Positions 6,222-53,727 of a stretch of DNA of 64,000 bases are shown piece after piece. The stretch comes from an uncultured Elusimicrobia bacterium (GTDB lineage: Bacteria > Elusimicrobiota > Elusimicrobia > UBA1565 > UBA9628), in the NCBI GenBank assembly GCA_964510095.1, contig CAZEAE010000003.1, positions 12,462 to 76,461 on the forward strand, written 5' to 3'. The position numbers were made by a program, and so were the translations under genes. Position 1 is the first letter of the stretch; each line of letters starts with the position of its first letter. The notes beneath the pieces were generated by a model. It searched no databases. It was not told where the DNA came from and saw nothing but the letters and a program-made list of their open reading frames with translations.

Positions 6222-6222
6222 G

Positions 6223-7944: not shown

Positions 7945-7962
7945 GTGGCCGGGCTCCGCGGC

Positions 7963-14499: not shown

Positions 14500-14650
14500 A
14501 AGAAACCGCTGTTAGGACGAATAACCCGCAATGCTGTGGATAATGGGGATAAGTAATCGAAGTTGTCCACAATCCGTTTTTTTGATGGCGGCAGGGAAGA
14601 CTCTCTTATCCACAACTCGGCGATGCTGATTAATAAGAGGATGAATTAGA
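14500..14650. promoter_or_regulatory. oriC: oriC segment 2: DnaA-box cluster between dnaA and dnaN
   Basis: TGTGGATAA 14525..14533, TTGTCCACA 14553..14561 (1 mismatch), perfect TTATCCACA 14606..14614, AT-rich tail. Confidence 0.55.
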
Positions 14651-15765
14651 ATGAAAATAATATGCAGTAAAGAAGACCTGGCTCAAGGAGTCCAAACCAT
14701 ACAGTCCGCGCTGTCTTCCCGGACGACCCTTCCCATACTTCTCAATTTCCTTCTAGAGACGGAAAATTCAAAAGTCAAAGTCATTTCGACCGATCTTGAG
14801 ATGGGCGTGAAGCATTATATCGGAGCGGCGGTGGAAAGCGACGGCGCCATCACTATCCCCGCTAAAAAATTCTCAGACATCCTCCATAGCCTCCCGGACG
14901 GGCAGGATGTGGAGCTTTCCGTCGATTCCGGAGATAAAATACAGCTTAAGTGCGGCCGTTCCCGGTTCGGTATCATAGGTGCGCCTAAATCGGAATATCC
15001 CGTCCTGCCTGATTTCAGCAAGGAGAACGCCTTTCAGGTCCCGGCCGGGGTCATCGGGGATATGGTCAAAAAAACCATCTTCGCCGCTTCTTCAGATGAG
15101 ACAAGACATGTGCTCAACGGCGTCTTCTGGTCCGCCAAGAAGGGAACCTTGGAGATGGTGGCCACCGACGGGCGCCGCCTAGCGGTCGTCGCCAAGAAGA
15201 TCGTCCCGAAGGAGAAGGATTTCTCCGTGATCGTGCCGACCAAGGTACTTTCGGAGCTTTTAAGGCTTTTCAGCTCCATGGATATAAAGAGCGACTCGAC
15301 CGAGCCGATGCTGGTCTCGGTCACCGATAACCAGATAACCTTCCAATTCAAGACGACGACTTTATTATCGCGCTTGGTCGGAGGAGCTTTCCCTAACTAC
15401 GAGCAGGTCATCCCGAGCAAGAAGGATATAGTCATACTCCTCAACACCAAAGACCTCATCGCCGTCACGAAGAGAGCCTCTCTTTGCGCCATCGACCGCG
15501 GCGGCTCGGTCAAGTACGTGCTTAAAAAGGGAACGCTGTTCGTCTCAGCCTCCAGCCAAAACCAGGAATTCAGCGAGGAGCTCCCGATCGAGTTCTCGGG
15601 AGATGAGTTCCAAGTCGCCTTCAATCCTCAATTCGTCATGGACGCCTTGAAGCATGTCGATGCCGAGAAGATGACCCTGGGGCTGACCACGCCGGTCAAT
15701 CCCGCGCTTATCGAGCCGGAGGGCAAGGGTGACTATAAATTCGTCATCATGCCTATGCGGATCTG

Positions 15766-15766
<1 letters not shown>
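14651..15766 (+). CDS. dnaN: DNA polymerase III beta sliding clamp
   Basis: MKIICSKEDL start, 371 aa three-domain clamp, canonical position after dnaA. Confidence 0.95.
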
Positions 15767-18698
<2,932 letters not shown>

Positions 18699-18707
18699 GG
18701 AGATATC

Positions 18708-21221
18708 ATGAGCAAAACCGAACAGCCGGACCTCACCCCCGAGCCCGTCGGCAACGTCACCGCGCGCGACCTCGGCGCCGAGATGAAGGCCTCCTATATC
18801 GATTACTCCATGTCGGTCATCGTCGGGCGCGCCTTGCCCGATATCCGGGACGGGCTCAAGCCCGTGCACCGACGCATCCTTTACGCGATGCACGACGAGG
18901 GCTTGGCCTCGAACAAGAAATACTCCAAGTGCGCCGGCGTCGTCGGCGAGGTCCTCAAGAAATATCACCCGCACGGAGACTCCGCGGTCTACGACGCCAT
19001 GGTCCGCATGGTGCAGAGCTTCTCCCTGCTGCATCCTTTGATCGACGGCCAAGGAAACTTCGGCTCCGTCGACGGCGACCCCGCGGCCGCCTACCGCTAC
19101 ACCGAGTGCCGCTTATCGAAGATCGCGGAAGAGGTGCTCGCGGACATCGACCAGGACACGGTCGATTTCTCCCCCAACTTCGACGGCACGACCACCGAGC
19201 CCGCCGTCATGCCTTCGCGCGTGCCCAACCTGCTGATCAACGGCTCCTCCGGTATCGCCGTCGGCATGGCCACCAACATCCCCCCGCATAACCTCTCCGA
19301 GACCTGCGAGGCCGCCATCGCCGTCATGAAGGACCCCAAGATCGAGACCAAGGAACTGCTCAAGATCATGAAGGGTCCTGATTTCCCCACCGGCGGCATC
19401 GTCAGGGGAAAGACCGGCATCCGGGATTATTTCGAAACCGGCCGCGGCAGCGTGCGCGTCCAGGCCAAGACCGAGATCGAGGACATCAAGGGCAACCGCC
19501 AGGCCATCATCATCACAGAGCTGCCTTACCAGGTCAACAAGGCCACCCTCCTCGAGACCATCGCCGACCTCGTGCGCAACAAGAAGATCCCCGACATCTC
19601 GGACATCCGCGACGAGTCCGACCGCAGCGGCATGCGCGTCGTCATCGAGATCAAGCGCGACGGCAACGCCAACGTGGTCTTGAACCAGCTCTACAAGCAC
19701 ACGCAGATGGAGACCTCCTTCGGCGTCATCCTGCTCTCCTTGGTCGACGGCCGGCCGCGGGTGCTGCCGGTGCGCGACATGCTGGTCCACTACATCGCCC
19801 ATCGCAAGAACATCGTCATCCGCCGCACGAAGTTCCAGCTGCGCAAGGCCTTGGACCGCGCCCACATCCTGGAAGGCTTCCTGATCGCCGTCAAGAACAT
19901 CGACCGGGTCATCAAGATCATCCGGGCCGCCAAGGACACCGACACCGCGCGCGTCGACCTCATCGAAGCCTTCGAGCTTTCGAAGATCCAGGCGCAGGCC
20001 ATCCTCGACATGCGCTTGGCGCAGCTGACCAAGCTGTCCGTCGATGAGCTGCAGAGCGAATACGACGCGCTGATGAAGAAGATCACCGAATACAAGGCGA
20101 TCCTCGCGGACATCAAGAAGGTCATGGCCATCGTCGCCAAGGAGCTGGAGACCGTCAAGGAGGCTTTCGGCAAGTCCCGCCAGACCCAGATCACCAGCGA
20201 AGCCGCCGAGATGACCCTGGAGGACCTCATCGCCAAGGAGAACGTCGTCATCAGCCTCTCCAACGCGGGGTACATCAAGCGCATCCCGGTGGCGACCTAT
20301 GTGGCGCAGGGACGCGGCGGCAAGGGCATCACGGGCGCCGAGGTCAAGGAAGAGGACTTCATCGAGCATTTCTTCATCACCGACACCCATGCCACCCTGC
20401 TCGTCTTCACGACGCGCGGGCGCGCCTTCGCGCTGAAGGCCTACGAGGTCCCCGAAGGCAACCGGACCTCTCGCGGCAAGGCGGTGGTCAACCTGCTGGC
20501 CATCATGGGCGAGGAGAAGATCACCTCCACGATCGCGATCTCCTCGTTCGAGGAGTCCAAAGGCAAGGAGACCTACCTGGTCATGTGCACCAGGTCCGGC
20601 ACGATCAAGAAGACCCCGCTGATGGACTTCGAGAACATCCGGCGCTCGGGCATCATCGCCATCGGCCTCGAGGAAGGCGACATCCTGGTCGAAGTCCAGC
20701 ACACCAAGGGCTCCGATGAGATCATGATCGCCACCAAGGGCGGCATGAGCATCCGTTTCCCGGAAGGCGACGTCCGCGCGATGGGGCGCGGCGCCAAGGG
20801 CGTGCGCGGCATGCGCCTCGATGAAGGGGATCAGGTCATCGGCATGGAGGCCTTCCCCGCCAACAGCAAGAAGAGCCTTCTGACCGTCTGCGAGCACGGC
20901 CACGGCAAACGCACGGAGCTCTCCGAATACCGCGGGCAGCACCGCGGCGGCGGCGGCACCATCACGATCAAGGCCACGGAGCGCAACGGCTCCGTCATCG
21001 GAGTCAAGCTTGTGACCAACGACGACGACCTGATGGTGATGACGCAGAACGGAAAAACGATCCGCATGCGCTGCAAGGACATCAAGACCATCTCCCGCAA
21101 CACCCAAGGGGTGCGGCTGGTCAAGCTCGACGAGACCGACAAGGTGGCTCGCGTGGCGCCCATCGCCGTCGAGCCGCCCGTCAGCCCCGAGCTGCCGCTG
21201 CCGGAAGGCAAGAAAGACTGA
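18708..21221 (+). CDS. gyrA: DNA gyrase subunit A
   Basis: active-site region AAMRYTE-like ([11 protein letters not shown]), beta-pinwheel C-terminal repeats, 837 aa. Confidence 0.95.
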
Positions 21222-25361: not shown

Positions 25362-26334
25362 AAGGAACGACGGAAGGCTCGCTTTGTCCGGTCACGCCGG
25401 ACACGTTGCGCGCCGCGCCGCGCAGGTAGAGCCCGGCGCCGACCTTATCGGCGGGCAGGCTGAACAGGAAGGGCTGGCGGCGCTGCAGGCGCGTGATGCG
25501 CTCCCAATCCAGCTGGTCGCGGGAGCTTTCGACCCAGGCTTCGTCGATGTTCTCTCCCGACACCGAGAAGGACGCCACGTAGCGCTTGCCCGCCCTTTGG
25601 GCGCTGAACTCCGTGACCGCGATCTCCTCGGAGCCGGAGGGCACGAGCTTGATGGCAAGGGCCGGGTAGATGCTGTTGATCGGGGTTTCCAGGGCCGTGG
25701 CGGCGTTGCGCGGCGGCACGCCCGAGATCGAGTGGTTGTTCCAGGCGCGGGTCTCGCGCGGAGAAGAATCCTCGACGGGGGCGGCGGCCAGGATGGGCGC
25801 GCTCGAGGCTCGGACGAAGTGCTGCGTCGGCGACCAGACGATGAGGTAGTTGGGCTGCGAGAAGCTGACCATGGCGCGAGGCACCTCGGCCCAGAACCAG
25901 TCCGACCCGCCGACGCCTTCGAGGTAGGCATGAGCGTCGGGCTCCAAGGGCAGGTCGGAGGTCTCGGCAAGGAAGAAGCTCTGCTCAGCGGTGAAAGACG
26001 GCGTCTGCGACACGCCCATGTAGACCTTGCCTGCGATGAGCTCGCGCAGCCAGGGCTTGTCGACGTTGGGGCGGGTCTTGGCGCGGCCTATCTTCGCGCC
26101 GATGAAAGCCCTGGAGAAATCCCCCAGCGGCGCCGGCGGGAGCTTGATGATCCAGGCGTTGTTGAAGCCGATGAACCAGTTGGCATCAGAACCGCTATCG
26201 GCGAAGCGGCCGAAGTCGTTGATGCTGGCCGCCAGCGAAAGATAGGTCGGCAGGATCGTGCTTGTTGAGAACACGGGGGCTTCAAAGCCCCAACTGGTCC
26301 CCGCCAGGAAGATTGCTAAATACGAAAAAATCAT
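25351..26334 (-). CDS. hypothetical secreted protein
   Basis: N-terminal hydrophobic segment MIFSYLAIFLAGTSWG, no recognisable catalytic motifs. Confidence 0.35.
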   Translation of the reverse strand: MIFSYLAIFLAGTSWGFEAPVFSTSTILPTYLSLAASINDFGRFADSGSDANWFIGFNNAWIIKLPPAPLGDFSRAFIGAKIGRAKTRPNVDKPWLRELIAGKVYMGVSQTPSFTAEQSFFLAETSDLPLEPDAHAYLEGVGGSDWFWAEVPRAMVSFSQPNYLIVWSPTQHFVRASSAPILAAAPVEDSSPRETRAWNNHSISGVPPRNAATALETPINSIYPALAIKLVPSGSEEIAVTEFSAQRAGKRYVASFSVSGENIDEAWVESSRDQLDWERITRLQRRQPFLFSLPADKVGAGLYLRGAARNVSGVTGQSEPSVVPYGP

Positions 26335-27215
26335 TATTTTTTAAACATATTTACGATTTTATCAAAGTCCGTCAACGAGTAAAAATGGATCGTGATCTTG
26401 CCCTTGGTTGGATCCTTTTTCGTCCGGATGTCTACCTTGGTGCCCAAGACCTGCTGCAAGGCGCCCTCCAGGGCCTTGATATCGGCTGATTTCGGGGTTT
26501 GGGGTTTTATGGAAGGCAAGGGGGTTTCCAATCCTTCGCCAGCCTCGACCTTGCGGGCCAGGTCTTCGGTTTCACGCACCGAGAGGCGGCGTTCCTGGAC
26601 TATATCAAAAAGTCCTTTTCTTTCCAGCGGATTTTTAACAACAAGCAAGGCTCGGCCATGGCCTTCGCTGATCTGGCCGAACTCTAGGGCCTTCTGGATC
26701 TCGTCGGAAAGTTCGAGCAAGCGTAGTGTGTTGGAGATCACGGCCTTGGACTTTCCTACGATCTGGCCGAGTTCGGTCTGATTGATCGAGAACTCTTTCA
26801 TCAATCGAAGGAAGCCTAGCGCTTCTTCGATGGCATTAAGATCCTCTCGCTGGATGTTCTCGATAAGAGCCAAAGCCAAGCGCTCTTTGTCTGATTTCGG
26901 GTGTCGAACGATCACCTCGACTTCATCGAGGCCGGCGAGTTCGCAGGCGCGCAGACGGCGTTCTCCCGCGATGAGTTCATAGGAGTTGTCGCTCTTGTCG
27001 AAGGATACGAGGATGGGTTGGGCTAGTCCATGCTCCTTGATGGAGGCGGATAATTCGCTCAAGCGTTCCGGGTCGAAATGGCGTCGCGGCTGGAGGCGGT
27101 TCGGCCGGATCTTAGAGATAGAAATCAGTGACGTTTGTTCTTTTGGGGTGATCACCGAGGGCTTTGGGGCGACAGGAATGAGAGCATCAAGACCGCGGCC
27201 TAGGGCGTTTCTCAT
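26334..27215 (-). CDS. parB: chromosome partitioning protein ParB
   Basis: GERRLRA ParB box (LIAGERRLRACELAGL), HTH, 293 aa; overlaps parA stop. Confidence 0.9.
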   Translation of the reverse strand: MRNALGRGLDALIPVAPKPSVITPKEQTSLISISKIRPNRLQPRRHFDPERLSELSASIKEHGLAQPILVSFDKSDNSYELIAGERRLRACELAGLDEVEVIVRHPKSDKERLALALIENIQREDLNAIEEALGFLRLMKEFSINQTELGQIVGKSKAVISNTLRLLELSDEIQKALEFGQISEGHGRALLVVKNPLERKGLFDIVQERRLSVRETEDLARKVEAGEGLETPLPSIKPQTPKSADIKALEGALQQVLGTKVDIRTKKDPTKGKITIHFYSLTDFDKIVNMFKK

Positions 27216-28024
27216 GAGGGATTCTCCAGTGTGATGGTTTCCGTAGGTGCGGGCAGGTCGACGCCGCGGCGGGCAAGAAGCTCGCGAGCGAAGGCTGCAT
27301 AGGCTTCAGCTCCCTTGGATTTTGGGTCGTACTGAAATATGCTTTGACCGAACCCCGGCGCTTCGGCAATGCGGATGTTTCTGGGGATGATCGTGGAAAA
27401 CATTCGGGGTCCGAAAAACTTGCCGACCTCGTCTTTGACCTGATTAGAGAGCGTCATCCGGGCATCGAACATGGTAAGTACCCCCCCCTCTATCACTAGG
27501 TTAGGGTTGAGGGCTTGCTGAATCCGTTGGACCGCGTCTATGAACTGGGCCAATCCCTCCATGGCATAATATTCGCCCTGGATCGGTACGATGGTCTTGG
27601 ATGCGGCATTGAGAGCGTTGATCGTCAATAGGCCAAGAGAAGGCGGGCAGTCGATGATAATGTAGTCGAAGCGGTCCTTGATGCCGCTTAAGGCTCCCTT
27701 GAGCCTGCTTTCTCGGGCAAGCGCGGATACGAGTTCGACTTCTGCGCCGATCAGGTCTTGATTTGAGCCGGCAACGGACAAAAAAGAGAGCGCTGTCTCT
27801 TTGATGGTTTTTTCCAGAGGCATCAATTCAACGAGCACGTTGTAGATGTTCGGGGTAAAAGAACGCTTGTCAAAACCGAGGCCGGAGGTGGCGTTTCCTT
27901 GGGGATCCATGTCTATTAGCAATGTTCTTTTCCCGTGGCTGGCTAGGGCTGCGGCCAAATTGACGGCCGTTGTCGTTTTTCCCACCCCCCCTTTTTGATT
28001 CGCTATCGCAATTATTTCAGACAT
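27212..28024 (-). CDS. parA: chromosome partitioning ATPase ParA/Soj
   Basis: deviant Walker A NQKGGVGKTTTAVNLA, 270 aa. Confidence 0.9.
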   Translation of the reverse strand: MSEIIAIANQKGGVGKTTTAVNLAAALASHGKRTLLIDMDPQGNATSGLGFDKRSFTPNIYNVLVELMPLEKTIKETALSFLSVAGSNQDLIGAEVELVSALARESRLKGALSGIKDRFDYIIIDCPPSLGLLTINALNAASKTIVPIQGEYYAMEGLAQFIDAVQRIQQALNPNLVIEGGVLTMFDARMTLSNQVKDEVGKFFGPRMFSTIIPRNIRIAEAPGFGQSIFQYDPKSKGAEAYAAFARELLARRGVDLPAPTETITLENPS

Positions 28025-28274: not shown

Positions 28275-29633
28275 ATGGAAAAGAACCGCAAGCTCGACGG
28301 CTTGCTTCGCTCGATCCGTGCGGGGCAGACGCAGACCGTTCTTTTGGCTTTTCCCGACATGCAGGGCCGCTGGATGGGAAAGCGCGCCACAGGCCGGCAT
28401 TTCGCCGAGACCGTTTCGCGGCACGGCACGCATGCCTGCGCCTATCTGCTGACCGTAGACATGGAGATGGATCCGGTGCCCGGCTATGAGCTGACGAGCT
28501 GGGCCAAGGGCTACCAGGATTTCCTGCTGGCGCCGGACCTCTCGACGATCCGGCCGCTGCCTTGGCAGCCGGGCACGACCTTGATCGTCTGCGACCTCAA
28601 AAGCGCCGATGGCACAAAACCCGTGGCGGTCGCGCCGCGCCAGATCTTGAGAGACCAGGTCTCACGGGCCGCCGCCGAAGGCTTCAGCTTGAAGATGGCT
28701 TCCGAGCTGGAGTTCTATCTCTTCAAAGAGACCTACGACAGCGCGCAGAAGAAGCGCTGGCATGACCTGGAGCATTTCGGCTCCTATATCGAGGACTACC
28801 ACATCCTGCAGGGCACCAAGGAAGAGTTCGTCGTCGGCGACATCCGTAATCTCATGGAGAAGGCCGGCATCCCCGTGGAGACCTCCAAGGGGGAATGGGG
28901 ACCGGGTCAGCACGAGATCAACCTGGGCTATGCGGGACCCGTCGAGACGGCCGACTGGCATACGATCTATAAACACGGAGCCAAGGAGATCGCCATGCAG
29001 AAGGGCGTCAGCATGACCTTCATGGCGAAATTCGATTCCAAGCTGGCGGGGTCTTCCTGCCATATCCACACGAGCTTGTGGGACAAGGCCGGCAAGAAGC
29101 CGCTCTTCTGGGAGGGGGGGAAAGCCAGCAAGCTCTTCCGTCATTTCCTGGGCGGGCAGATGGCCTTGGCGCGCGAGCTGTCCTATTTCTACGCCCCGAC
29201 GGTCAACTCCTACAAGCGTTATCAGTCGTCCACCTTCGCGCCGACGCGCATCGCTTGGGCGGCCGACAACCGGACTTGCGGCTTCCGCACCGTCGGAGAG
29301 GGGGGGGCTTACCGCATCGAGAACCGCATCCCCGGCGCCGACGTGAACCCTTATCTGGCTTTCGCGGCCACCATCGCCGCCGGTCTCTACGGCATCAAGA
29401 ACAAGATCGAGCCGCCGCCGGAGCTCAAGGGCAACGCCTACGAGAGCAAGGTCGCGCCCGTGCCCAAGACCCTGCACGAAGCCATCGCGCTGCTCGAGAA
29501 GTCCAAGGCCGCCCAGCAGGCCTTCGGTGAAACGGTGTTCAAGCACTACCTGCACACGGCGCGCGCCGAACAAGCGGCGTACGACCGGGCGGTGACTTGC
29601 TGGGAGCGCGAGAGGAATTTCGAGCGGATCTGA
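28275..29633 (+). CDS. glutamine synthetase family protein (GlnA-like; possibly gamma-glutamyl-polyamine synthetase type)
   Basis: GEWGPGQHEINLGY and KFDSKLAGSSCHIHTSLW GS catalytic signatures; start moved to ATG 28275 preceded by G8 Shine-Dalgarno-like tract; ORF-track N-extension lies in AT-rich intergenic DNA. Confidence 0.75.
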   Translation: MEKNRKLDGLLRSIRAGQTQTVLLAFPDMQGRWMGKRATGRHFAETVSRHGTHACAYLLTVDMEMDPVPGYELTSWAKGYQDFLLAPDLSTIRPLPWQPGTTLIVCDLKSADGTKPVAVAPRQILRDQVSRAAAEGFSLKMASELEFYLFKETYDSAQKKRWHDLEHFGSYIEDYHILQGTKEEFVVGDIRNLMEKAGIPVETSKGEWGPGQHEINLGYAGPVETADWHTIYKHGAKEIAMQKGVSMTFMAKFDSKLAGSSCHIHTSLWDKAGKKPLFWEGGKASKLFRHFLGGQMALARELSYFYAPTVNSYKRYQSSTFAPTRIAWAADNRTCGFRTVGEGGAYRIENRIPGADVNPYLAFAATIAAGLYGIKNKIEPPPELKGNAYESKVAPVPKTLHEAIALLEKSKAAQQAFGETVFKHYLHTARAEQAAYDRAVTCWERERNFERI

Positions 29634-29636
29634 GGG

Positions 29637-30098
29637 CTAGGCTTCGACGCGCTGGATCGCCTCGAAGATCTCGAGGGGCTCCGGCAGGTCGCGGAAATAC
29701 TCCAGGGTGATCGCGACGAAGCAGAGCTTGGCGCCTTGGCTCTGGGCATGGATCTCGCGGGACAGATAGATCCGCCCGAAAGGCGCGGCCTCCAGCAGCA
29801 GCTCCGCCGCCCTGGTGTCCGTGACGTGCAGGCCCATGCGGAGGAAGACGCGGTCGGGATCCTTCCGGGCGCCATTGTCCTTGGCGCAGCGCGCCTGCAG
29901 CGCCAGCGCGCAGGCCAAGGCGCTGGGGGCCAGGGGGAACTCGCAGACGGAGATCTCGCCGCAGGAGCGCACGAGCGCGCCGCCGTGCTTTCGCAGCAGG
30001 CCCTCGAGCACGAGGCTGGAGGCGTCGACGAAATCGACCTCGGGCGGGGGCTTCGTCCGTCCCGGGGTTCGGCTCGTCACCAAGAGGAATGCGGGCAT
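29637..30098 (-). CDS. degenerate class III nucleotidyl-cyclase homology domain (CHD) protein, 153 aa
   Basis: Start MPAFLLV (ATG 30098..30096) overlaps kinase stop (ATGA); VDFVDASS and SCGEISVCEF align to CHD metal-binding blocks; RMGLHVTDT; segment corresponding to the GxxVNxAxR block absent. Confidence 0.45.
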   Translation of the reverse strand: MPAFLLVTSRTPGRTKPPPEVDFVDASSLVLEGLLRKHGGALVRSCGEISVCEFPLAPSALACALALQARCAKDNGARKDPDRVFLRMGLHVTDTRAAELLLEAAPFGRIYLSREIHAQSQGAKLCFVAITLEYFRDLPEPLEIFEAIQRVEA

Positions 30099-31372
30099 CA
30101 GGCGGCTCCGATCGCTTTGGCGAATTCCGCGACCGATTGGAACCGATCTTCCGCCTTGAAGCTCATGCAGCGCTCCACCGCGCGGGAGAGCTCCGGAGGC
30201 ACCGAGGGCTCCAGGTCCGCCAGGGGTTTGAAGTCCTGTTTTTCCTTCTGTATGTAGAAGTTCGGCCCCGTGAAGGGCTGCTCGCCGCCCAGCAGCTCGT
30301 AGACGGTGGCGCCTAGGGCGAAGATGTCGGCGCGCAGGTCCGAGCGACCTCGCTCCTGCTCCGGCGCCATGTAGGCCAGCGTGCCGGAGGTGTCCAGCTT
30401 GGTCTTGGAAAGCCTTTCCGCCGTATCCTTGATCTGCCGGGCGACCCCGAAATCCATGACCTTCGCGTAACCGTGCTTGGTCAGCATGATGTTGGAGGGC
30501 TTGATGTCGCGGTGCACGACCTTGCAGGAGTGCGCGTAGGCCAGCGCTTCGCAGATGCATTTGAGCACCGGCTTGGCCTTTTCGGCGGGCATGACCCGTT
30601 TGGTATCCAGATATTCCTGCAGCGTTTTGCCGTCGACGTACTCGAAGATCAGATAGAGCTCAGCGCCCTCGTCTAGGATCGCGTAGATGTCGGCGATGAA
30701 GGGGTGGTGCAAAGACGCCGACAACTTGGCCTCCTTGAGGAACAGGGTCTTGTCGCGCCCGGCCAGCTTCAGCGCGGGCAGCATGCGTTTTATGGCCACG
30801 GGCCGGTCGAGCGAGTGGTCCCGGCCCTCGTAGACGATGCCCATGCCGCCGCTGCCGAGCTCGCGCTTCAGTTCATACTTGCCCGCCAGCCAGCCGGCCG
30901 GCTTGACCGGCGCCGCCGGTCCAGCGGGGACGGGCTTCTCCGGCGTCTTGGGAGCGACCAGCTCGAAGGTCCCGCCCTGCGCCGAGCAGCAGCGGGCGGT
31001 CTCGGCGAGCCATTCGTCGCGTTCGGCCAGCCTTTCCGGGGCGGCCGCCGTCCAGCTGTCGTCCCGAAAAAACAAGAGCAAGGTCTCAGGCGCCTTGTCC
31101 GGCAGGGCGACGGTCAGCAAGAGGCAGGGCTCTTGGTCCGGCGGCCCGGCTTTCAGGCGTACGATGGACGAAAGAGCGGCCTCATAAAGGACGGGCCCCG
31201 GCTCCTTCTCGCGCATGGCGGCCAGGTCGTAGTAGGCCGCGCAGAGCACCAGCCGCCGGTCGGTCAGGTATGAGTGGCAGAGCCGGCCGCTCAGGCCGCT
31301 TGCCGGCCTGAGGAAATGGCCGTTGGCGGCTTCTTTGACCAGGCTCTCGCCGTCGGCTAAGGGGATCACCAT
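30098..31372 (-). CDS. Hanks-type Ser/Thr protein kinase with N-terminal bacterial PH/GRAM-like domain
   Basis: VAIKRM Lys, VHRDIKPSNIML catalytic loop, MDFG, YMAPEQ; N-terminal 170 aa with LTDRRLVL bPH-like pattern; 7-nt overlap with upstream HD-GYP gene. Confidence 0.85.
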   Translation of the reverse strand: MVIPLADGESLVKEAANGHFLRPASGLSGRLCHSYLTDRRLVLCAAYYDLAAMREKEPGPVLYEAALSSIVRLKAGPPDQEPCLLLTVALPDKAPETLLLFFRDDSWTAAAPERLAERDEWLAETARCCSAQGGTFELVAPKTPEKPVPAGPAAPVKPAGWLAGKYELKRELGSGGMGIVYEGRDHSLDRPVAIKRMLPALKLAGRDKTLFLKEAKLSASLHHPFIADIYAILDEGAELYLIFEYVDGKTLQEYLDTKRVMPAEKAKPVLKCICEALAYAHSCKVVHRDIKPSNIMLTKHGYAKVMDFGVARQIKDTAERLSKTKLDTSGTLAYMAPEQERGRSDLRADIFALGATVYELLGGEQPFTGPNFYIQKEKQDFKPLADLEPSVPPELSRAVERCMSFKAEDRFQSVAEFAKAIGAA

Positions 31373-32448
31373 GCCGTCGAGCGGGAGGCGAGGAGGTCCA
31401 CGAAGGCTTTCACTACTTTAGGGTCGAAGCTCTTGCCGGCCCCGTCCTGGGCTTCCTGAAGGGCCTTCTGATGGAGGTCGCGGCCGCGCAAGCCGACCAT
31501 GCGCAGGTCCTCGACGGCCTCGACCAAGCTCAGGATGCGAGCGCCCAACGGGATGGCGTCACCCGCGAGCTTGTCTGGAAAGCCCGCGCCGTCGAACCTT
31601 TCATGATGATGCAGGATCAGAGGGACGGCCCCCTCCATCATCGTGATGCCCTCGAGCATCTTGGCGGACAAGGTCGGATGCAGCTCTTCGGAGGCCTTCA
31701 TGACGCCCATGTCGGCGAGGAACTCCGCGCTATTCATGGCGATGTAGCCGATGTCATGGAGCATGCCCGCGTAATAGAGCATGCGGTAGTCGTGGTCTTC
31801 GACGCCCAGCGATCGGCCGATAGCGCGGGCCAGCTTGGCCGAGCGCATGCAGTGGCCTTCCATGTTGGGGCGGGTCGTCTCCACCGCCAGGCAGAGCAGG
31901 TCCAGGCCATGGGTCAGGAAGTTGTTCTGCTCGGCGTTGGTCTTGGTGTGCGAGATGCTGGCGGCGGCAAAAGAAGCCATGTGGGTGAGCAGGTCGACGT
32001 GCTCCTGGGTGTAGCTGCCGGAGCGGCGGTTGAGCACCTCGACGACGCCGATGAGCTCGTCGCGGAAGACCATCGGCACGCAGAGGGCGGAGCGGGTCAC
32101 GAAGCCCGTCTTGCGGTCGAAATCGGCGGCGAAATGCGGGTCCTTCCGGGTGTCTTCGACCACCTCGGGCTTGCCGCTCTGGGCCACCCAGCCGGCGATG
32201 CCCTGCCCGAGGGGAAGGCGCATGGTCTTGAGGCTTTGCCCTTTCTCGCCGGAGGCGACCTTGAAGAAGAGGTGCTGCTTGTCGTCGGTGACCAGCATGA
32301 TGGCGCTGGCCTCGCTGTCGAGCAGCTGTTCGGCGGCGGTGCCGATCTTCTGCAGGAGGAAGTCCAGGTCGACGGCGGAGTTCAGGCTGCCGGCGATGGA
32401 GAAAAGACCAAGCGCTTTCTTGACGTCGGCTTCCCCGTTGACGCTCAC
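31366..32448 (-). CDS. GAF domain - HD-GYP phosphodiesterase (GFP variant of GYP motif)
   Basis: N-terminal GAF, HD motif MLHDIGY, HHERFDGAGFP downstream motif; start abuts pilB-like stop with zero spacer. Confidence 0.8.
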   Translation of the reverse strand: MSVNGEADVKKALGLFSIAGSLNSAVDLDFLLQKIGTAAEQLLDSEASAIMLVTDDKQHLFFKVASGEKGQSLKTMRLPLGQGIAGWVAQSGKPEVVEDTRKDPHFAADFDRKTGFVTRSALCVPMVFRDELIGVVEVLNRRSGSYTQEHVDLLTHMASFAAASISHTKTNAEQNNFLTHGLDLLCLAVETTRPNMEGHCMRSAKLARAIGRSLGVEDHDYRMLYYAGMLHDIGYIAMNSAEFLADMGVMKASEELHPTLSAKMLEGITMMEGAVPLILHHHERFDGAGFPDKLAGDAIPLGARILSLVEAVEDLRMVGLRGRDLHQKALQEAQDGAGKSFDPKVVKAFVDLLASRSTAW

Positions 32449-34234
<1,786 letters not shown>

Positions 34235-34245
<11 letters not shown>

Positions 34246-34798
34246 GGGGGGAAACCTTGTAGACCTTGGTCATCTTGGCCACCCCTTTGAGCTGCAGGGG
34301 GTCGACCTCGGCGCAGGCGACCTCGGCCTTGCTCATGGAGAGGTAGACGGCCTCGGTGAAGAACACCTCGCCGGGCGCGGCCAGATTGCCGAGCTGGGCC
34401 GTGATGCTGACCGGTTCGCCGAAGATGTCTCCGTCGGTCAGATGGATCTCGCCCATGTTGACGGCGATGCGGATCTCGATGCGCTCCGCCTCGGGCCGGT
34501 AGGAGTTATAGCGCGCCAGGGCGTCTTGGGCCGCGGCCGCGCCCAGCACGGCGTTGGTGGGGCTGTCGAAGACGAGCAGGTAGGCTTCCCCGATCGTGTT
34601 GATGAGCTTTCCGCCGCGGCTCTGCAGCACCGGCAGGACGATCTGTTTCTGCTTTTCGAGCAGGGAAAGCAGGGCGGCCCGGCTGATCTGATTGGTCTTC
34701 TTCGTGAAGTCCTTGATATCCGTGCGCATGATCGTCAGGACTCGGGTATCGCTGCTGTTCATCAGGAGCAGGATAGCCCCGCTTGAGTCGCCTGTCAA
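34235..34798 (-). CDS. class III nucleotidyl-cyclase homology domain protein, 187 aa, non-canonical active site
   Basis: TDIKDFT, GGKLINTIGEAYLLVF, RIEIRIAVNMGEIHLTDGDIFGEPVSITAQL, LKGVAKMTKVYKV align to CHD blocks; second metal Asp appears as Glu; Asn/Arg of the VNxAxR block appear as Ser/Gln; overlaps ATPase start. Confidence 0.55.
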
Positions 34799-35358
34799 GC
34801 GTTAGGCTGGGTCGGCAGGGGGCAGGCCGGGGCGTAGCAGCGGGAGATCGCCAGGCTGGCCAGCGTCCAGCCGGCCACGGCATCGACGACATACAGGAAG
34901 GCGAAGCCGAACGGGAACTTCCACCAGACGAAGTTAGACATCTGGCCCAGCACTCCGACGCAGATGCCGAAGAAAGCGCCGTACAAGGCGGCGTCCTTGA
35001 GGGTCAGGCCGGGGATCTTGCCCAGGATCCAGGTCCAAAAGAAGGCGCCCACCGTCTGGATGAGCAGGCCTAAGGCCATCGTCTTGCCCATGGAGCCCCA
35101 GCCGGCCTTGTGATAGGACAGGAATAGGAACGGGTCGGTCGGCGCGGTCTTGCCTGAGGGGTCGTTGGCCAACAGGTAGACGCCGCCTTGCAGGGCGGAG
35201 GCTTCGAGGCTGTGCACGAGGGGCGCGGCGTCCGGGAGTTGGGCAACGCTCCTATTATGGAAAGGCAGCGCCATCCAAGACAGGGCCTGCCAGACGAAGA
35301 CGATCAACCCGCCGACGACGGCGCCTTTCCATGGCGAAAGGCAGCGGTGTTCGATCAT
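34795..35358 (-). CDS. small integral membrane protein (4 predicted TM), unknown function
   Basis: start at MIEHRC overlapping arginase-family stop; stop overlaps CHD gene start. Confidence 0.4.
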   Translation of the reverse strand: MIEHRCLSPWKGAVVGGLIVFVWQALSWMALPFHNRSVAQLPDAAPLVHSLEASALQGGVYLLANDPSGKTAPTDPFLFLSYHKAGWGSMGKTMALGLLIQTVGAFFWTWILGKIPGLTLKDAALYGAFFGICVGVLGQMSNFVWWKFPFGFAFLYVVDAVAGWTLASLAISRCYAPACPLPTQPNA

Positions 35359-36410
35359 GCGGCGTCCCGCGTCTTGGCCAGGCCTTGGCTGGCCAAGGCC
35401 CAACCGGTCATCTTGTAGAGGAGCCGCGCGCCGACATTGGCGTCCCACTCGTTCTTGCCGGCGGGGTCAGGAGCCACTTCGTTGAGGTCGAACCCGACGA
35501 TCCGCCGCCCAGAGCGCGCGACGGCTCCCAGGACGTGGTTGGCTTCGGAGAACTCCAGGCCGCCGGGCACCGGCGTGCCGGTGTGGGGGCAGAAGCGCGG
35601 GTCCAGGCCGTCGATGTCGAAGGTGACCCAGACGTCCTTGGGCAGGGCTTCCGCTATCTCTTGGGCTACCGCGTCGAACGGCTCGCCGGCGAAGCGCCGC
35701 CGGGCCAGGTCGCCGTCATAGAACACGGCGACCCGTTCTTCCTGGGCCGCGCAGAAAGCGGCTTCCTGTTCGGAAAAATCCCTGATGCCCACCTGCACGA
35801 GCTTGGCCACCGCCGGGAGGTCGTTTAAGACGTTGTAAAAGATGGAGGCATGCGACCAGGTGAAGCCTTCGTAGGCCGCTCGCGTGTCGTGATGGGCGTC
35901 GAAATGAAGGATCCCCATGCCGGGATGTCGTTTGGCCGCGGCTTTGATGGCGCCGTAGGGGGTGGAATGGTCGCCGCCGATGATGGCCGGTATCTTCCCG
36001 CTCTCATAGAGCCGCTCGGTCTCTTTCTCGACGTAGGCGTTGAGCCGGTCGCCGAGGCGGTTGACGAGGTCCAGCGCCTTGCGGGGGGATGGCTTTCCGG
36101 CCAGCAGCGCCTTGATCACGAGCTGGGCGGCCTTCTTGGCCTCTTTGTTCCAGGCCCGCACGGCGGGCGATTCGGGCAGCAGGAAGAGCCCCGGTTCGTA
36201 GGGCTTGAGCACGTCGAAATCATAGAGGTCGAGCTGGGCGCTGGCTTCCAGGATGGCGGAGGGGCCCATCGAGGTGCCGCCGCCGTAGGACGTCGTCGCC
36301 TCCCAGGGCACGGGCAGGTAGACGAGGGAGGCATCCTTCTCGGTGAAGGGAAGGCCGAAGATGCCGTCGGCGGCGGAGCCGGGCGCGGCGGGGTCGAAGC
36401 TCTTGGTCAC
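35355..36410 (-). CDS. ureohydrolase, arginase/agmatinase/formiminoglutamase family
   Basis: GGDHS and DAHHD Mn-binding motifs, VTFDIDGLDP, 351 aa. Confidence 0.75.
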   Translation of the reverse strand: MTKSFDPAAPGSAADGIFGLPFTEKDASLVYLPVPWEATTSYGGGTSMGPSAILEASAQLDLYDFDVLKPYEPGLFLLPESPAVRAWNKEAKKAAQLVIKALLAGKPSPRKALDLVNRLGDRLNAYVEKETERLYESGKIPAIIGGDHSTPYGAIKAAAKRHPGMGILHFDAHHDTRAAYEGFTWSHASIFYNVLNDLPAVAKLVQVGIRDFSEQEAAFCAAQEERVAVFYDGDLARRRFAGEPFDAVAQEIAEALPKDVWVTFDIDGLDPRFCPHTGTPVPGGLEFSEANHVLGAVARSGRRIVGFDLNEVAPDPAGKNEWDANVGARLLYKMTGWALASQGLAKTRDAA

Positions 36411-36431
36411 GCCGCTATTATAGAAAATCGC

Positions 36432-36803
36432 CTAGAGGGCGATGCGGATGTCGATGGCGTCATAGTCGACGCAGGGCGCGATGGCGCGGCGGGGGGACTT
36501 TTTGGCCTTGGGCAGCTTGACCAGGCCGTGCTTGTGGAGGATCTCGATGTCGCGCAGCACGCTGGGAAAGCCTCGGCCGAGAAGCTTGGCCAGGGCGTAG
36601 ACGCTCTGGGGCTTCTTCTCCTTGACGCAGCGCAGGATCTCGAGGCGCTTGGGCGTCAGGAAGTTGCGCATCACTTCGATGCTCGTGAAGGAGACGCCGT
36701 CGTGCCGCTTGAAGGGCAGGCGCTTTCGGGCGGCTTCGTAAGCCTCCTCGAATTCATCCATGGACTCTTCAAGACTCTTGATGCTGAATGAAACCACTTT
36801 CAT
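36432..36803 (-). CDS. winged-helix DNA-binding protein (antitoxin-like regulator)
   Basis: start at MKVVSF (ATGA overlap with upstream small gene); LTPKRLEILRCVKEKKPQSVYALAKLLGRGFPSVLRDIEILHKHGLV wHTH. Confidence 0.5.
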   Translation of the reverse strand: MKVVSFSIKSLEESMDEFEEAYEAARKRLPFKRHDGVSFTSIEVMRNFLTPKRLEILRCVKEKKPQSVYALAKLLGRGFPSVLRDIEILHKHGLVKLPKAKKSPRRAIAPCVDYDAIDIRIAL

Positions 36804-40444: not shown

Positions 40445-40714
40445 ATGGACTGGAAGATCATGATGACCGCGTTCGGGACCTTGTTCCTCGCCGAGATGGG
40501 GGACAAGACCCAGCTTGCCGTCATCACGCTCTGCGCCTCGTCCAAGAGCCCGGCTTCCGTGTTCGCCGGCGCCGCGATGGCCCTGGTCCTGGTGACGGCG
40601 CTGGGGGTCTTGTTCGGCAGAGGGGTCGTCGCCCTGATCCCGGAGGCGGTCTTGAACCGGATCGCAGCCACGGCCTTCATCGCCATCGGCGCGATGATGT
40701 GGATCCGCCCCTAG
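40445..40714 (+). CDS. UPF0016/GDT1-family single-repeat membrane protein
   Basis: EMGDKTQ signature (E-x-G-D-K-T), 3 TM, 89 aa from MDWKIMM. Confidence 0.6.
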   Translation: MDWKIMMTAFGTLFLAEMGDKTQLAVITLCASSKSPASVFAGAAMALVLVTALGVLFGRGVVALIPEAVLNRIAATAFIAIGAMMWIRP

Positions 40715-41565
40715 AAGAAGCCTTCCAGGAAATTCTCGACGAGGATCGGCAGGTCTTCCGCGTACCCGCCCTCCAGGACGGCGAAGCGCCTGAGCTTGGT
40801 CTGCGCGATCAGGCTCCCGATGCGCGTATAGCTCTGCTTGGTCAGCTTCAGCTGCGCGATCGGGTCTTCTTTATACGTGTCGAACCCCGCCGACACCGCC
40901 AGGACGTCCGGCTTGAAGTCCAGCATCAGCCTTAGCACCTCTTCAAGCTTTTTGAGATAAGGCCCTTCGTCGGTGCCCGGGGCCAGCGGATAGTTCCGGC
41001 AGTTGCCCACCGAGTCCAGGCCCGTGCCCGGATAGAGAGGGACTTGGTGCAGCGAGGCGAAGAAGTAGCCTTCCCGTCCCAGGGTCAGCTCCTGCGTCCC
41101 GTCGCCGTGGTGCACGTCGATGTCCAGGATGGCGATCCGGGCCGCCTGCTTCTCGACCTTCAGCTTTTCGCAAGCCAGCGCCGCGTTGTTGAAGTAGCAG
41201 AAGCCCGAGACGCGGTCCTTGCCCGCGTGGTGTCCCGGAGGGCGCATCAAGGAGAGCGCGGGCTCGCCGGCTGCGGCCGTCTTCGCCGCCGAGAGCGCGC
41301 CCGCCAGGCTGATCAGGGCGACCGGCACGATCCCCGGGTGCAAAGGCGTGTCCGGGTCCGAGTACGAGCCTTTCTGGAGCTTATGGAAGTGCTTCACCCC
41401 GTGAAGCAAGGCCACGTCGGAGCCCGTCGCTTCTTCCAGGGGCTTCTCGACCTTGTGGCCCGCCGAGATCAGCCGCGCATGGCTCCTGATGACGCGAAAC
41501 GGCGCCTCGGGATGTCCCGGGGCGCCGTAGGTCGCCGTGGCCAGGTCGCTGAAGACGCGGCCCAA
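40711..41565 (-). CDS. histone deacetylase-family amidohydrolase (acetoin utilisation AcuC / acetylpolyamine amidohydrolase type)
   Basis: DIDVHHGDGTQE zinc-binding signature, GFCYFNN, 284 aa. Confidence 0.85.
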   Translation of the reverse strand: MGRVFSDLATATYGAPGHPEAPFRVIRSHARLISAGHKVEKPLEEATGSDVALLHGVKHFHKLQKGSYSDPDTPLHPGIVPVALISLAGALSAAKTAAAGEPALSLMRPPGHHAGKDRVSGFCYFNNAALACEKLKVEKQAARIAILDIDVHHGDGTQELTLGREGYFFASLHQVPLYPGTGLDSVGNCRNYPLAPGTDEGPYLKKLEEVLRLMLDFKPDVLAVSAGFDTYKEDPIAQLKLTKQSYTRIGSLIAQTKLRRFAVLEGGYAEDLPILVENFLEGFF

Positions 41566-41567
41566 CT

Positions 41568-42632
41568 TTAGCGGGTCGCGACTGGTATCTTCGACTCTTC
41601 GTCGTTGAGCAGCGCGTTGAACTTGCGCGCCGTGCGCTTCTTCCAGCTGCCTTTATGGTAGCCGTAGGAGGCCAGGAGCGGCAGGGCCAGCGTCGCCTCC
41701 GAGAAGACCATCTGCTCGTAGACCGTGTCCACCTTGCCCCAGGAGCAGGCTTCGCGCAAGGTCGAGCCCGATAGCGCGCCGTCGCGCTCGTCGGCCACCG
41801 TGATCTGGATCGCGTACTTGTGCATCCGGGTATCGAGGCCGATCATCTCGGCTCCCACGGTGACGTCTTGCGCGAAGTTCTTGGGGACGCCGCCGCCGAT
41901 CATCAGCAGCCCGGTCTCCTTGCAATCGAGCTTCACGCGCACCAGCTCGCGGAAGTCCTTGGCCGAGTCCAGCGAGACGTGCGAGTCCGGGTTATGCCAC
42001 TGGTGGTGCAGCAGGCCGAAGCCGGCCGAGCAGTCGGAGAACGCCGGCACGAAGATCGGAACGCCCTTCTTGTAGGCCGCCAGGACCACCGAGTCCTTCA
42101 CCTTGCAGTTCTTGCCGGTCGCCAGGTACTTGCCCATCTCCTCGATGAACTCCCGGGAGGAGTAAGCGCGCGGCTTGAGCGTGCCTGCGATCTCGGAGGT
42201 GATGTTGTCCGTCTCCCCGAGGGAGTCCTCGTCGATGAAGGTGTCATAGATCCGGTCCACGCGCGCCGCGCGCAGCTCGTGGTCGTCGACCCACTTCGTT
42301 CCTTTATAATGCTTGTGCCCGACGGCCTCGAAGAAATCCTGGTCGACGATGTTGGCGCCGGTGGAGACGATCGCGTCGACCATGTTGTTCTGGACCATGT
42401 CGAAGACGATCTTCTTGAGGCCGGCCGAGAACAAGGAGCCCGCCAGGCACAGGATCACGCTGCAGTCGCGGTCGCCCAGCATGCGGTCGTAGATCTCGCT
42501 GGCGCGCGCCAGGTCCCGGGCCGAGAAGGCCATCTTGGACATGGCTTCGATCATGGAGACGGAATTGTGCTTCATGATGTCGAAATGCTCGATCGGGTCT
42601 TTCAAAAGCTCTGACTTCTTCATACTCGACAT
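41568..42632 (-). CDS. deoxyhypusine synthase-like protein (bacterial homospermidine synthase type)
   Basis: start at MSSMKK preceded by GGAGAAACA; DHS-family blocks (STGANIVDQDF, GGGVPKNF); 354 aa. Confidence 0.75.
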   Translation of the reverse strand: MSSMKKSELLKDPIEHFDIMKHNSVSMIEAMSKMAFSARDLARASEIYDRMLGDRDCSVILCLAGSLFSAGLKKIVFDMVQNNMVDAIVSTGANIVDQDFFEAVGHKHYKGTKWVDDHELRAARVDRIYDTFIDEDSLGETDNITSEIAGTLKPRAYSSREFIEEMGKYLATGKNCKVKDSVVLAAYKKGVPIFVPAFSDCSAGFGLLHHQWHNPDSHVSLDSAKDFRELVRVKLDCKETGLLMIGGGVPKNFAQDVTVGAEMIGLDTRMHKYAIQITVADERDGALSGSTLREACSWGKVDTVYEQMVFSEATLALPLLASYGYHKGSWKKRTARKFNALLNDEESKIPVATR

Positions 42633-52854: not shown

Positions 52855-52928
52855 TGCGCCCGGCTGGACTTGAACCAGCGACCCTTCGGTTATGAGCCGA
52901 GTGCTCTGACCAACTGAGCTACGGGCGC
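52855..52928 (-). tRNA. tRNA-Met (anticodon CAU; elongator-type or tRNA-Ile2 lysidine substrate), no encoded CCA
   Basis: reverse complement folds as cloverleaf: acceptor GCGCCCG/CGGGCGC, D-arm GCTC-AGTTGGTCA-GAGC, anticodon loop CTCATAA, T-arm GCTGG-TTCAAGT-CCAGC; anticodon-stem pair 29-41 is C-G so not the initiator. Confidence 0.85.
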
Positions 52929-52930
52929 GT
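52889..52930. repeat. 42-bp direct repeat copy 1 (tRNA-Met positions 1-39 plus 2 flanking nt)
   Basis: gttatgagccgagtgctctgaccaactgagctacgggcgcgt identical to 55948..55989. Confidence 0.85.
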
Positions 52931-53678
52931 CCTTGTATTTTACAGAGTTTTTCCCCGTCGCGGGGCGGCTTGTGGGCGCCGTCTGTGGCCAAACTGTGGC
53001 CAAGAAGGTCATGCGTGTCATCTGGGGGCCGCGACCGACTGAGGAACAAGGACATTTACTTTCGGGGCTGTCATTGGGTCCATTAGGTATCTCCCGCCGA
53101 CGGGGATGAATTCCCTCACGACGAGTCTTCGGGCGGCCTCCTCGCTGATGCGACCGCGACTTGAGGGAAGAAAGGACGATTAGAAACCCGGTCTTTCGTG
53201 CAATTTGGGCGCCTGGCCATTACCAACAACCAGCTTCATGAGTGTAAGACACATGGCACCGCGCACCCCGTCCGCTACCCGCTCCTGGTCATGGGGGCAT
53301 TCGAACACGGTGCGGAGAATAGGATGTAACCCAGCGTGAATCACCAGTGGTATTGCGCCGCAATGACGTGGACACTCTGTTACTCCGTCGCCGTGTATGC
53401 ACATGGCTACGCCCAAATAGCTTGACCAGGGTTTGAGCTACCAGAAGACCAGCATCTTGCTTGGCCTGGTTAAACGAACGTCCTGCCCTCAGGCGTTGCA
53501 GGCGAGCCTCACGGATAGTCCTTAGAACGAACAGAGTCACATCCTCGCCCGCAGGCCGTCTTGCAAAGTATGCGTTGATTGCTCTGCGGATCACGGGTAT
53601 AAGTGGCGCGAGATACCGTGTTCGACGTCGCGCCTTGTCTGTATCGGATGGAAACTCATCCTGTCGCACCCATACCAT
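52931..53678 (-). pseudogene. tyrosine recombinase (phage-type integrase) remnant with frameshifts
   Basis: three minus-strand frame fragments in collinear order: DVTLFVLRTIREARLQRL...QAKQDAGL (53289..53678), TECPRHCGAIPLVIHAGLHPIL (53180..53416, resembles HxLRHTfA block), DLLGHSLATDG (52816..53055, resembles LLGHssi.tT block) running into the tRNA; catalytic Tyr not found. Confidence 0.35.
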
Positions 53679-53727
53679 GATACCCCCTAGACTTCTTTCG
53701 CCAAGGTCCCCCTACATGCCACGGCTC

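Follow-up and report, generated by a model that had tools for sequence, protein, structure and literature searches.

Paralogue, in an uncultured Elusimicrobia bacterium, of a phylum-wide gene pair encoding a PilB-class ATPase and a GAF/HD-GYP-like protein, with predicted loss of c-di-GMP recognition

The DNA analysed here, called the window, is a stretch of 64,000 nucleotides (nt) from an uncultured Elusimicrobia bacterium (assembly GCA_964510095.1, contig CAZEAE010000003.1, positions 12,462 to 76,461), and its subject is a chain of seven co-directional minus-strand genes, from 36410 to 29637, in which a gene for a PilB/GspE-class ATPase is followed directly by one for a protein with a GAF domain and an HD-GYP-like domain. 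An earlier note on this DNA had described the seven genes, and the open reading frame (ORF) listing and the public gene calls concur on all of them; its family assignments are also borne out by Pfam and profile comparisons, with direct Pfam support for five of the seven products. Transcription runs from an arginase-family ureohydrolase gene (35355..36410; 351 amino acids (aa), GTG start, agmatinase-like) through genes for a 187-aa membrane protein with four hydrophobic segments (the 4-TM protein; 34795..35358), a stand-alone class III cyclase-homology domain (CHD1; 34235..34798 or 34762), the ATPase (32449..34245; a hexameric-class motor of 598 aa with an N-terminal MshEN-fold domain), the GAF/HD-GYP-like protein (GAF-HD; 31366..32448; 360 aa, with a GTG start right after the ATPase stop) and a Hanks-type Ser/Thr kinase (30098..31372; 424 aa, of which about 135 form an unclassified N-terminal domain), and ends with a second, divergent cyclase-homology protein of 153 aa (CHD2; 29637..30098). 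The ATPase, named GspE/PulE family protein at NCBI, has an exact sequence match on a 205-kb contig of the Hainich groundwater metagenome ERZ1292634, in an Elusimicrobiota metagenome-assembled genome (MAG).

All junctions had been described as overlaps of 4 or 0 nt; the tight chaining stands, as does the translational coupling of the ATPase gene to the HD-GYP-family gene, the kinase gene and the two cyclase-homology genes, but the actual distances are more varied. The ATG of the 4-TM gene lies over the stop of the arginase-family gene (ATGA, a 4-nt overlap), and the 4-TM and CHD1 genes either overlap by 4 nt, if CHD1 starts at TTG 34798 (187 aa), or are separated by 33 nt, if it starts at ATG 34762 (175 aa) as in the public gene call. 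Further along, CHD1 and ATPase genes overlap by 11 nt, ATPase and GAF-HD genes by 0, GAF-HD and kinase genes by 7 and kinase and CHD2 genes by 1 nt. The 11-nt overlap (34235-34245) recurs at the ATPase start in other loci and arises with unrelated upstream genes, the mutase alpha subunit gene elsewhere and CHD1 in the window, because the conserved N-terminus MAVK, commonly encoded as ATG GCG GTT AAA, contains a TAA in the +2 frame that ends upstream ORFs lying in that frame. The likely start of the operon is a sequence pattern on the minus strand at 36417..36443, a hairpin after the upstream helix-turn-helix (HTH) gene and then TATAAT (36422-36417), which stands 6 nt ahead of the arginase-family GTG; the transcript is possibly leaderless. 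A promoter-like TTGACA-17-TATCCT at 34770..34798 (minus strand), 5' of the CHD1 ATG at 34762, is a match to the consensus, and a weak one, with 1 site seen against 0.7 expected by chance; it could serve as an internal start splitting the arginase-family and 4-TM genes from the signalling genes. An Rfam scan of the window gave no riboswitch or other RNA except tRNA-Met.

The ATPase is most similar to type IV pilus extension motors. Pfam identifies T2SSE (PF00437, 7e-114) and MshEN (PF05157, 9.8e-16, residues 65-150), and the best matches in PDB are full-length PilB proteins (3jc8 and 5tsg, about 1e-114) that align from end to end, as does Thermus PilF. The type IVa PilB equivalog TIGR02538 of NCBIfam is the top model, at 526.8 bits under a cutoff of 675.65, followed by the GspE equivalog TIGR02533 at 481 bits under a cutoff of 630. 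All catalytic boxes are complete, namely a Walker A box GPTGSGKST, an Asp box ENPVEY, a Walker B box VIMVGEIRD and a His box TGHLVFSTIHTN, and a tetracysteine Zn motif CPDC...CEAC can be read from the translation; the motor of the window is thus predicted to be a catalytically intact ATPase of the PilB/GspE class.

Over its first 150 residues the ATPase is homologous to MshEN/GSPII domains (match to PDB 5htl, 6.7e-7), a stretch which the earlier note had taken for two tandem repeats like those with which MshE binds cyclic di-GMP (c-di-GMP). As defined by Wang et al. 2016 (PMC5013675), the MshEN motif consists of two 24-residue copies of RLGxx(L/V/I)(L/V/I)xxG(L/V/I)(L/V/I)xxxxLxxxLxxQ with a 5-residue spacer, and a relaxed search pattern is also given there. 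Alignment with PilB places the two copies in the window protein at TVKEILLESQALTEEQVAAADAEA and SLQQAIIDAKLLAKEPLLKALAEG, with the spacer AAGNK between them. The tandem repeats are real insofar as the 24+5+24 spacing and the hydrophobic register are kept, but the Arg, both Gly and the Gln that determine binding are replaced in both copies: in motif I Arg1 is Thr, Gly3 is Lys, Gln, Ala or Ser, Gly10 is Gln or Lys and Gln24 is Ala, and in motif II the corresponding positions hold Ser, Gln, Lys/Asn/Gly and Gly/Glu/Asp. The relaxed motif is matched by none of 120 ATPase orthologues, and the description of the protein as a c-di-GMP-type MshE is therefore not supported. The replacements are themselves conserved and are common to all four types of locus described below, which argues that the N-domain is selected for something other than canonical c-di-GMP binding; residues outside the motifs, for example G5, R8, Q42 and W64, are very strongly conserved, and identity among the ATPase orthologues of the phylum is 56-84%.

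The downstream partner consists, by Pfam, of GAF, HD_5 and HD domains, and its residues 18-350 align with residues 17-352 of PmGH (4mcw; E=4e-32), a GAF-HD-GYP phosphodiesterase of known structure, whose residue numbers are used here with the roles assigned to them by Galperin & Chou. All six His/Asp ligands of the binuclear metal site are kept in the window protein (H189, H221/D222, H250, H276/H277), as are E278 and the DG that follows; the third-metal ligand E185, absent throughout the Elusimicrobiota GAF-HD family, is Asn, and D305 is Glu. The signature reads HHHERFDGAGFP, with GFP in place of GYP as had been noticed, so that HHExh(D/N)GxGYP is not matched; Phe stands at Tyr285 of the window protein, as it does in 25 of the 62 orthologues compared. 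Other departures involve every orthologue. The Lys of HDxGK is Tyr (HDxGY) in 62/62; KPG (K235 and G237, a contact to Gua2) is DMG in the window and D/E-M/L-G in all 62; and RxY[K/R] (R314, K317), to which Galperin & Chou largely attribute c-di-GMP specificity, is absent from all, its place being taken by G-L-[RK] in an invariant LRMVGL context. With both contact motifs gone, the earlier identification of this gene as encoding a c-di-GMP phosphodiesterase is not supported, and on these alignments neither the ATPase N-domain nor the HD-GYP-like domain retains c-di-GMP recognition residues. In the window lineage, where the His/Asp ligands remain, the protein may have residual or altered enzymatic activity. 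Its GAF domain is most similar to GAF domains that bind cyclic nucleotide monophosphates, those of CyaB2, of the cGMP-specific phosphodiesterase GAF entry 5w10 and of PDE2.

A part of the family has lost the metal site as well. One monophyletic sub-clade of the T1 type described below, comprising 26 of the 62 orthologues, each from its own species, carries the coordinated changes H189Y, D222K (HD to HK), H250L and H277K (loci L004, L014, L018, L020, L029, L031, L034, L036, L037, L041, L043, L045-L052, L054-L056, L070, L083, L088 and L090). Mean identity within this clade is still 76% in the HD region and 85% in the GAF region, and the gene still lies directly after that of the ATPase. The clade is, as far as its residues tell, a conserved pseudo-enzyme, and the combination of metal-site loss with high conservation suggests that the conserved function of the GAF-HD family is not catalysis.

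How far the gene arrangement of the window extends was examined by comparing ATPase loci, with 10-kb flanks, from 80 GTDB species genomes, together with further contigs carrying close homologues; all were searched by tblastn with the window proteins and with neighbours seen elsewhere. The most common arrangement (T1, 48/80) comprises genes for the methylmalonyl-CoA mutase alpha subunit, ATPase, GAF-HD, the B12-binding subunit, MeaB, epimerase, carboxyltransferase and malate dehydrogenase. A further ten of the 80 have the ATPase/GAF-HD pair without mutase genes (T1b). In 18/80, all Elusimicrobiales and including an E. minutum MAG, the ATPase gene occurs without GAF-HD (T2), in the order S8 peptidase, DUF192, ATPase, one gene, SmpB, pilin and prepilin peptidase (PilD). 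The type found in the window (T3: ATPase, GAF-HD, kinase, CHD2) is seen in only two of the 80; beyond these it is represented by the window itself and by contigs L006 and L008, a fourth candidate, L007, being the same contig as L011, which is already counted. In L008 the kinase and CHD2 genes lie ahead of the ATPase gene, and two further close relatives have yet other neighbour genes. GAF-HD follows immediately after the ATPase in 56 of the 74 loci with enough downstream sequence. We note that in T1 loci the pair lies between the genes for the mutase alpha and B12-binding subunits with overlapping stops and starts (L002, L004, L014-L018, L020 and others).

T3 ATPases form a single clade nested within T1 in a neighbor-joining tree, and two MAGs have both, the T3 copy on one contig and the T1 copy on another (L011 with L017, and L012 with L025); for both reasons the window copy, a member of the T3 clade, is best regarded as a lineage-specific paralogous duplicate of a phylum-wide two-gene pair. 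Only three clade-specific positions, all conservative, distinguish T3 from T1 ATPases, so that the job of the duplicated motor is not visibly changed and no sign of neofunctionalisation is seen. The seven genes had been put forward as a possible new system, and when they were sought in other genomes only the ATPase and GAF-HD genes proved to stay together. None of the 89 other loci has a homologue of the arginase-family, 4-TM or CHD1 gene next to the ATPase gene, and since this company occurs in the present genome only, the seven genes do not make up a unit. What is conserved is a core of two genes, extended to four in the T3 clade, in which the kinase and CHD2 genes are the clade-specific additions. 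The arginase-family, 4-TM and CHD1 genes are operon neighbours and not parts of the system, the 4-TM and CHD1 genes being specific to the window.

The kinase that accompanies the duplicate matches Pkinase (PF00069, 1.6e-50) and has GSGGMG, VAIK (as VAIKRM), HRDIKPSN, DFG and APE (as MAPE), which marks it as a Hanks-type kinase with a predicted full set of catalytic motifs. It follows GAF-HD in L006, L007/L011, L012, L091 and L092, and lies ahead of the ATPase in L008. Its sensor-like N-terminal domain (residues 1-135; 30968-31372) has the motifs RLCHxYLT and ERDEW, is conserved in five T3 loci and is essentially private to this small clade, with only three representatives among 1.84 billion protein clusters; a metagenome scan returned two short contigs only, in both of which GAF-HD is followed by this kinase. 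The domain had been labelled bPH, which is not confirmed: it has no Pfam match at E<=1 and no PDB match with a five-sequence profile, and a single-sequence AlphaFold2 model (one homologue found; pLDDT 42), showing beta strands and a C-terminal helix, which would be compatible with the label, was too poor to test it or to be used for a fold search.

Both proteins that had been proposed as cyclase homologues do belong to the class III fold, but neither has kept the residues of a working cyclase. CHD1 matches Guanylate_cyc (PF00211, 5.6e-13) and, in PDB, 3mr7 (2.6e-17) and Ma1120 (5e-14); compared with Ma1120, its first metal Asp is kept and the second is Glu, while Lys is Asn, Asn is Pro and Arg is Gln. 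CHD2 itself has no Pfam match, but a profile of eight family members matches 3mr7 (8e-15) and Ma1120 (3e-14), hhalign of the CHD2 family (with CHD1 excluded from the profile) against CHD1 gives 97.5%, and the top Foldseek matches are all cyclases, obtained with a model of pLDDT 60 from a shallow alignment of four homologues. At the metal Asp positions the CHD2 family has T/S and E, the substrate Lys is R, and there is no Asn or Arg. Both proteins are therefore predicted to be catalytically dead, and neither would work as a conventional cyclase, whether by itself or paired in a heterodimer. A heterodimeric cyclase combining the metal site of CHD1 with Lys, Asn and Arg from CHD2 was considered and ruled out, CHD2 being without those residues too. 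In two T3 loci (L007 14196-15323 and L012 14200-15321) the CHD2 domain continues at its C-terminus into a fused multi-pass membrane region of about 200 aa, which points to the membrane as the place where the CHD2 family acts.

Among the genes outside the conserved module, the arginase-family protein heading the chain matches Arginase (PF00491, 4.1e-54), with the Mn-site motifs GGDHS, DAHHD and DIDGLDP all present and a score of 161.8 bits against the agmatinase model TIGR01230, just under its cutoff of 174.3; the 4-TM protein has only a weak match to DUF1761 (E=0.019). Its gene belongs to a cluster of polyamine-type genes, consisting of a glutamine-synthetase-like gene (28275-29633, plus strand), the agmatinase-like gene itself (35355-36410, minus strand) and histone-deacetylase-family and deoxyhypusine-synthase-like genes (40711-42632, minus strand). 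The first of these scores under the cutoffs for both glutamine synthetase and gamma-glutamylputrescine synthetase, and is convergent with CHD2, with 3 nt between the stops. Directly upstream of the arginase-family gene is a toxin-antitoxin-like pair, in which a TumE-family toxin gene (37105-36803, minus strand) overlaps an HVO_A0114/MarR-like HTH gene (36803-36432, minus strand). More widely, the window includes a chromosomal origin region with dnaA, dnaN, the DciA gene, gyrB and gyrA (13147-21221) and parB/parA (26334-28024), and a single minus-strand run at about 6200-12300 that encodes a complete mannose-family phosphotransferase system (EIIA-D) with HPr, enzyme I, HPr kinase, RapZ and a ribosome hibernation factor. 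G+C content is lower (0.54-0.58) at 12-16 kb, and a caspase-like Peptidase_C14 gene in a stretch of low G+C (0.55) at 52855-55722, beside the tRNA-Met, may mark an island; Peptidase_C14 genes are also found near the ATPase in L006 and L007.

Taken together, these observations lead us to a model to which we give about an even chance, in which an intact PilB-class motor is paired with a mainly non-catalytic, GAF-gated partner, the window holds a kinase-equipped duplicate of the pair, and the filament platform is encoded elsewhere. The GAF/HD-GYP-like protein would act on the motor chiefly by protein contact, under the control of a ligand of its GAF domain; such a role is proposed because the partner stays conserved and adjacent even where its metal ligands are gone. 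The kinase of the window copy would add phospho-control, and the dead cyclase-homology proteins would serve as nucleotide-sensing or scaffold subunits. The ATPase probably serves a type IV filament machine whose genes lie elsewhere, to judge from its full-length similarity to PilB and from the ancestral copy, whose conserved synteny with pilin and prepilin peptidase genes places a pilin or PilD homologue within 10 kb of the ATPase in 21 of the 80 loci, the flanks being the region compared. As only three conservative positions separate the window copy from the ancestral one, it too would most likely still drive such a platform.

Several observations weigh against this model. As the earlier note had reported for 15 kb on either side, the Pfam-labelled gene calls from 6 kb in the window to about 73.5 kb (about 10 kb past its right edge) include no pilin, secretin, GspF/PilC or PilT gene, and no PilM-Q gene either; nor is there a platform (PilC/GspF), PilM-Q or PilT gene in any of the 90 flanking regions, where a further PilB/PilT-like gene was likewise not detected by tblastn with the ATPase. 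In the 18 Elusimicrobiales loci that have no adjacent GAF-HD, conservation of the ATPase N-domain is about equal, so that its conserved surface need not be a docking site for that protein. The window GAF-HD, having all six His/Asp ligands, may be an enzyme here; the proposed partnership is drawn from adjacency and from persistence after catalytic death; and for the fixed place of the pair inside the mutase operon the model has no explanation.

The rival readings draw on some of the same facts. The pair might still be a working cyclic-nucleotide module with non-canonical recognition, in which, in the lineages with metal ligands kept (the window among them), the HD-GYP-like protein hydrolyses c-di-GMP in another mode, cyclic GMP-AMP, cyclic di-AMP or another molecule, and the ATPase N-domain detects that molecule by means of the conserved basic stretch at its N-terminus (G5, R8, R/H9, K10) and Q42/W64. 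The window protein keeps H189, HD, H250, HH, E278 and DG, its GAF domain is of the type that binds cyclic nucleotides, the N-domain has its strongly conserved residues outside the motifs, HD-GYP specificity is known to shift when RxxK is altered (Galperin & Chou), and a cAMP-gated GAF-HD-GYP protein is known in Thermosynechococcus. Set against this are the loss of four metal ligands in 26 of 62 orthologues with gene and position kept, the want of KPG and RxY[K/R] in all members, and an operon that is without a synthase since both cyclase-homology proteins are dead; we consider such a module unlikely. Another reading is that the pair stands outside filament biology, the motor having another role, linked for example to the methylmalonyl-CoA/propionate operon, and the window copy being a kinase-controlled version. 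The translational coupling between mutase subunit genes in 48/80 species, the absence of platform, PilT and secretin genes from every flank, and the failure to reach either the PilB or the GspE equivalog cutoff would all fit. Yet the similarity to PilB is full-length and includes the Zn tetracysteine and all ATPase boxes, the pilin/PilD synteny is conserved in 21 loci, embedding in an operon may mean co-expression only, and we know of no non-filament role for the PilB/GspE class of ATPase, so that we regard a role of this kind as quite improbable.

Still less credence attaches to the notion that all seven genes form one integrated novel system, with a c-di-GMP-sensing MshE motor, a phosphodiesterase, two cyclases, a kinase and an amidinohydrolase. 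The tight chain on one strand (genes overlapping, or no more than 33 nt apart), the domain families, which are as had been named, and the lack of pilus genes nearby agree with it, but it is made very improbable by the finding of the arginase-family, 4-TM and CHD1 genes beside the ATPase in 0/89 other loci, by the absence of the MshEN motif and the HD-GYP c-di-GMP contact motifs, by two cyclase-homology proteins without catalytic residues and by the weak promoter-like site before CHD1. That the locus is an anti-phage defence island, with a PD-T4-6-like Ser/Thr kinase and accessory proteins beside the TumE toxin-antitoxin pair, seems to us barely credible. The kinase matches the PADLOC PD-T4-6 models at 2e-76 and the TumE/HTH pair lies directly upstream, but the match covers the generic kinase domain only (residues 160-421), the other operon proteins have no matches to defence models except weak HD matches to Cas3, and the ATPase/GAF-HD pair is vertically conserved throughout the phylum. 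As PADLOC gave only generic kinase-domain matches, the defence reading was rejected. Beside the model of a motor with a mainly non-catalytic partner, we offer with due reserve, as a possibility that we hold only tentatively, a more novel reading: an undescribed two-protein module, embedded in the mutase operon in most species, in which a c-di-GMP-blind PilB-class motor would be controlled, directly or via another nucleotide, by a GAF-gated pseudo-enzyme derived from an HD-GYP protein (or by an enzyme of altered specificity), and whose duplicate in the window would have joined pseudo-cyclases and a kinase with a near-unique sensor domain in a separate regulatory circuit, maybe a non-pilus one.

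The motor-regulator pair is undescribed, although all of its component families are known. The earlier note had stated that the arrangement is not a described locus type, and no literature describing it was found; nor did the literature searched contain a paper that connects Elusimicrobia with the ATPase, the pairing or c-di-GMP signalling, and the supplements of the TFF-superfamily paper have no Elusimicrobia rows. If the proposed model is true, it provides an example of the control of a type IV filament or secretion motor in which c-di-GMP sensing has been replaced by a dedicated partner derived from a c-di-GMP phosphodiesterase. A protein whose active site is dead and which is yet kept, in about 40% of the sampled lineages, would constitute a natural experiment in the passage of second-messenger enzymes to adaptors. 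The pair would also offer a handle on the control of pili, competence or secretion in a largely uncultivated phylum, and its placement in a B12-dependent mutase operon hints at a coupling of surface-filament activity to propionate/succinate metabolism. For annotation there is a warning, in that a domain match to 'MshEN' or 'HD-GYP' does not imply c-di-GMP signalling.

Comparison with known systems helps to place each component. The window ATPase is built like PilB (Myxococcus xanthus 3JC8, Geobacter metallireducens 5TSG, Thermus PilF 6F8L), with an MshEN/GSPII fold at the N-terminus, an N2 domain, an ATPase domain at the C-terminus, Walker A and B, Asp and His boxes, and a tetracysteine Zn site; it differs in scoring under the equivalog cutoff, in an N-domain without c-di-GMP residues and in having no adjacent pilC, pilT or pilMNOPQ, and outside the Elusimicrobiales the Elusimicrobiota ATPase is always paired with a GAF/HD-GYP-like gene. 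Relative to MshE (Vibrio cholerae 5HTL), the N-domain is homologous and of the same 24+5+24 spacing, whereas its Arg/Gly/Gln determinants are lost. Degenerate MshEN domains, for instance that of Xanthomonas XpsE (mentioned in PMC12943098), are similar in this respect. The class III cyclases (Ma1120, Rv1900c, 3MR7) are homologous to CHD1 and the CHD2 family over the whole domain; in both of the latter Lys/Asn/Arg are replaced and the second metal Asp is Glu, CHD2 is also without the first Asp, and both are stand-alone single domains of 153-187 aa.

For the partner, the nearest comparison is PmGH (Persephonella marina 4MCW/4MDZ), with which it shares the GAF plus HD-GYP architecture and, in the window copy, the His/Asp ligands of a binuclear site and the HHExxDG core, and from which the window protein differs in having no E185, Glu for D305, DMG for KPG, no RxY[K/R], Tyr in HDxGK and GFP; Tlr0485 of Thermosynechococcus is a cAMP-activated GAF-HD-GYP protein of the PmGH type. 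Inactive HD-GYP proteins that act via protein contacts are documented, as in the RpfG-type proteins, HnoD and ECA3548. FimX-PilZ-PilB in Xanthomonas and FimX-PilB in Pseudomonas tie a regulator with a degenerate c-di-GMP domain to the pilus ATPase. Such inactive HD-GYP and EAL regulators usually still bind c-di-GMP or sit in c-di-GMP networks, whereas in the Elusimicrobiota pair both partners appear to be without recognition residues and the proposed link between them is one of conserved operon adjacency; common to both is a degenerate domain kept under selection and tied to a pilus ATPase or other partner.

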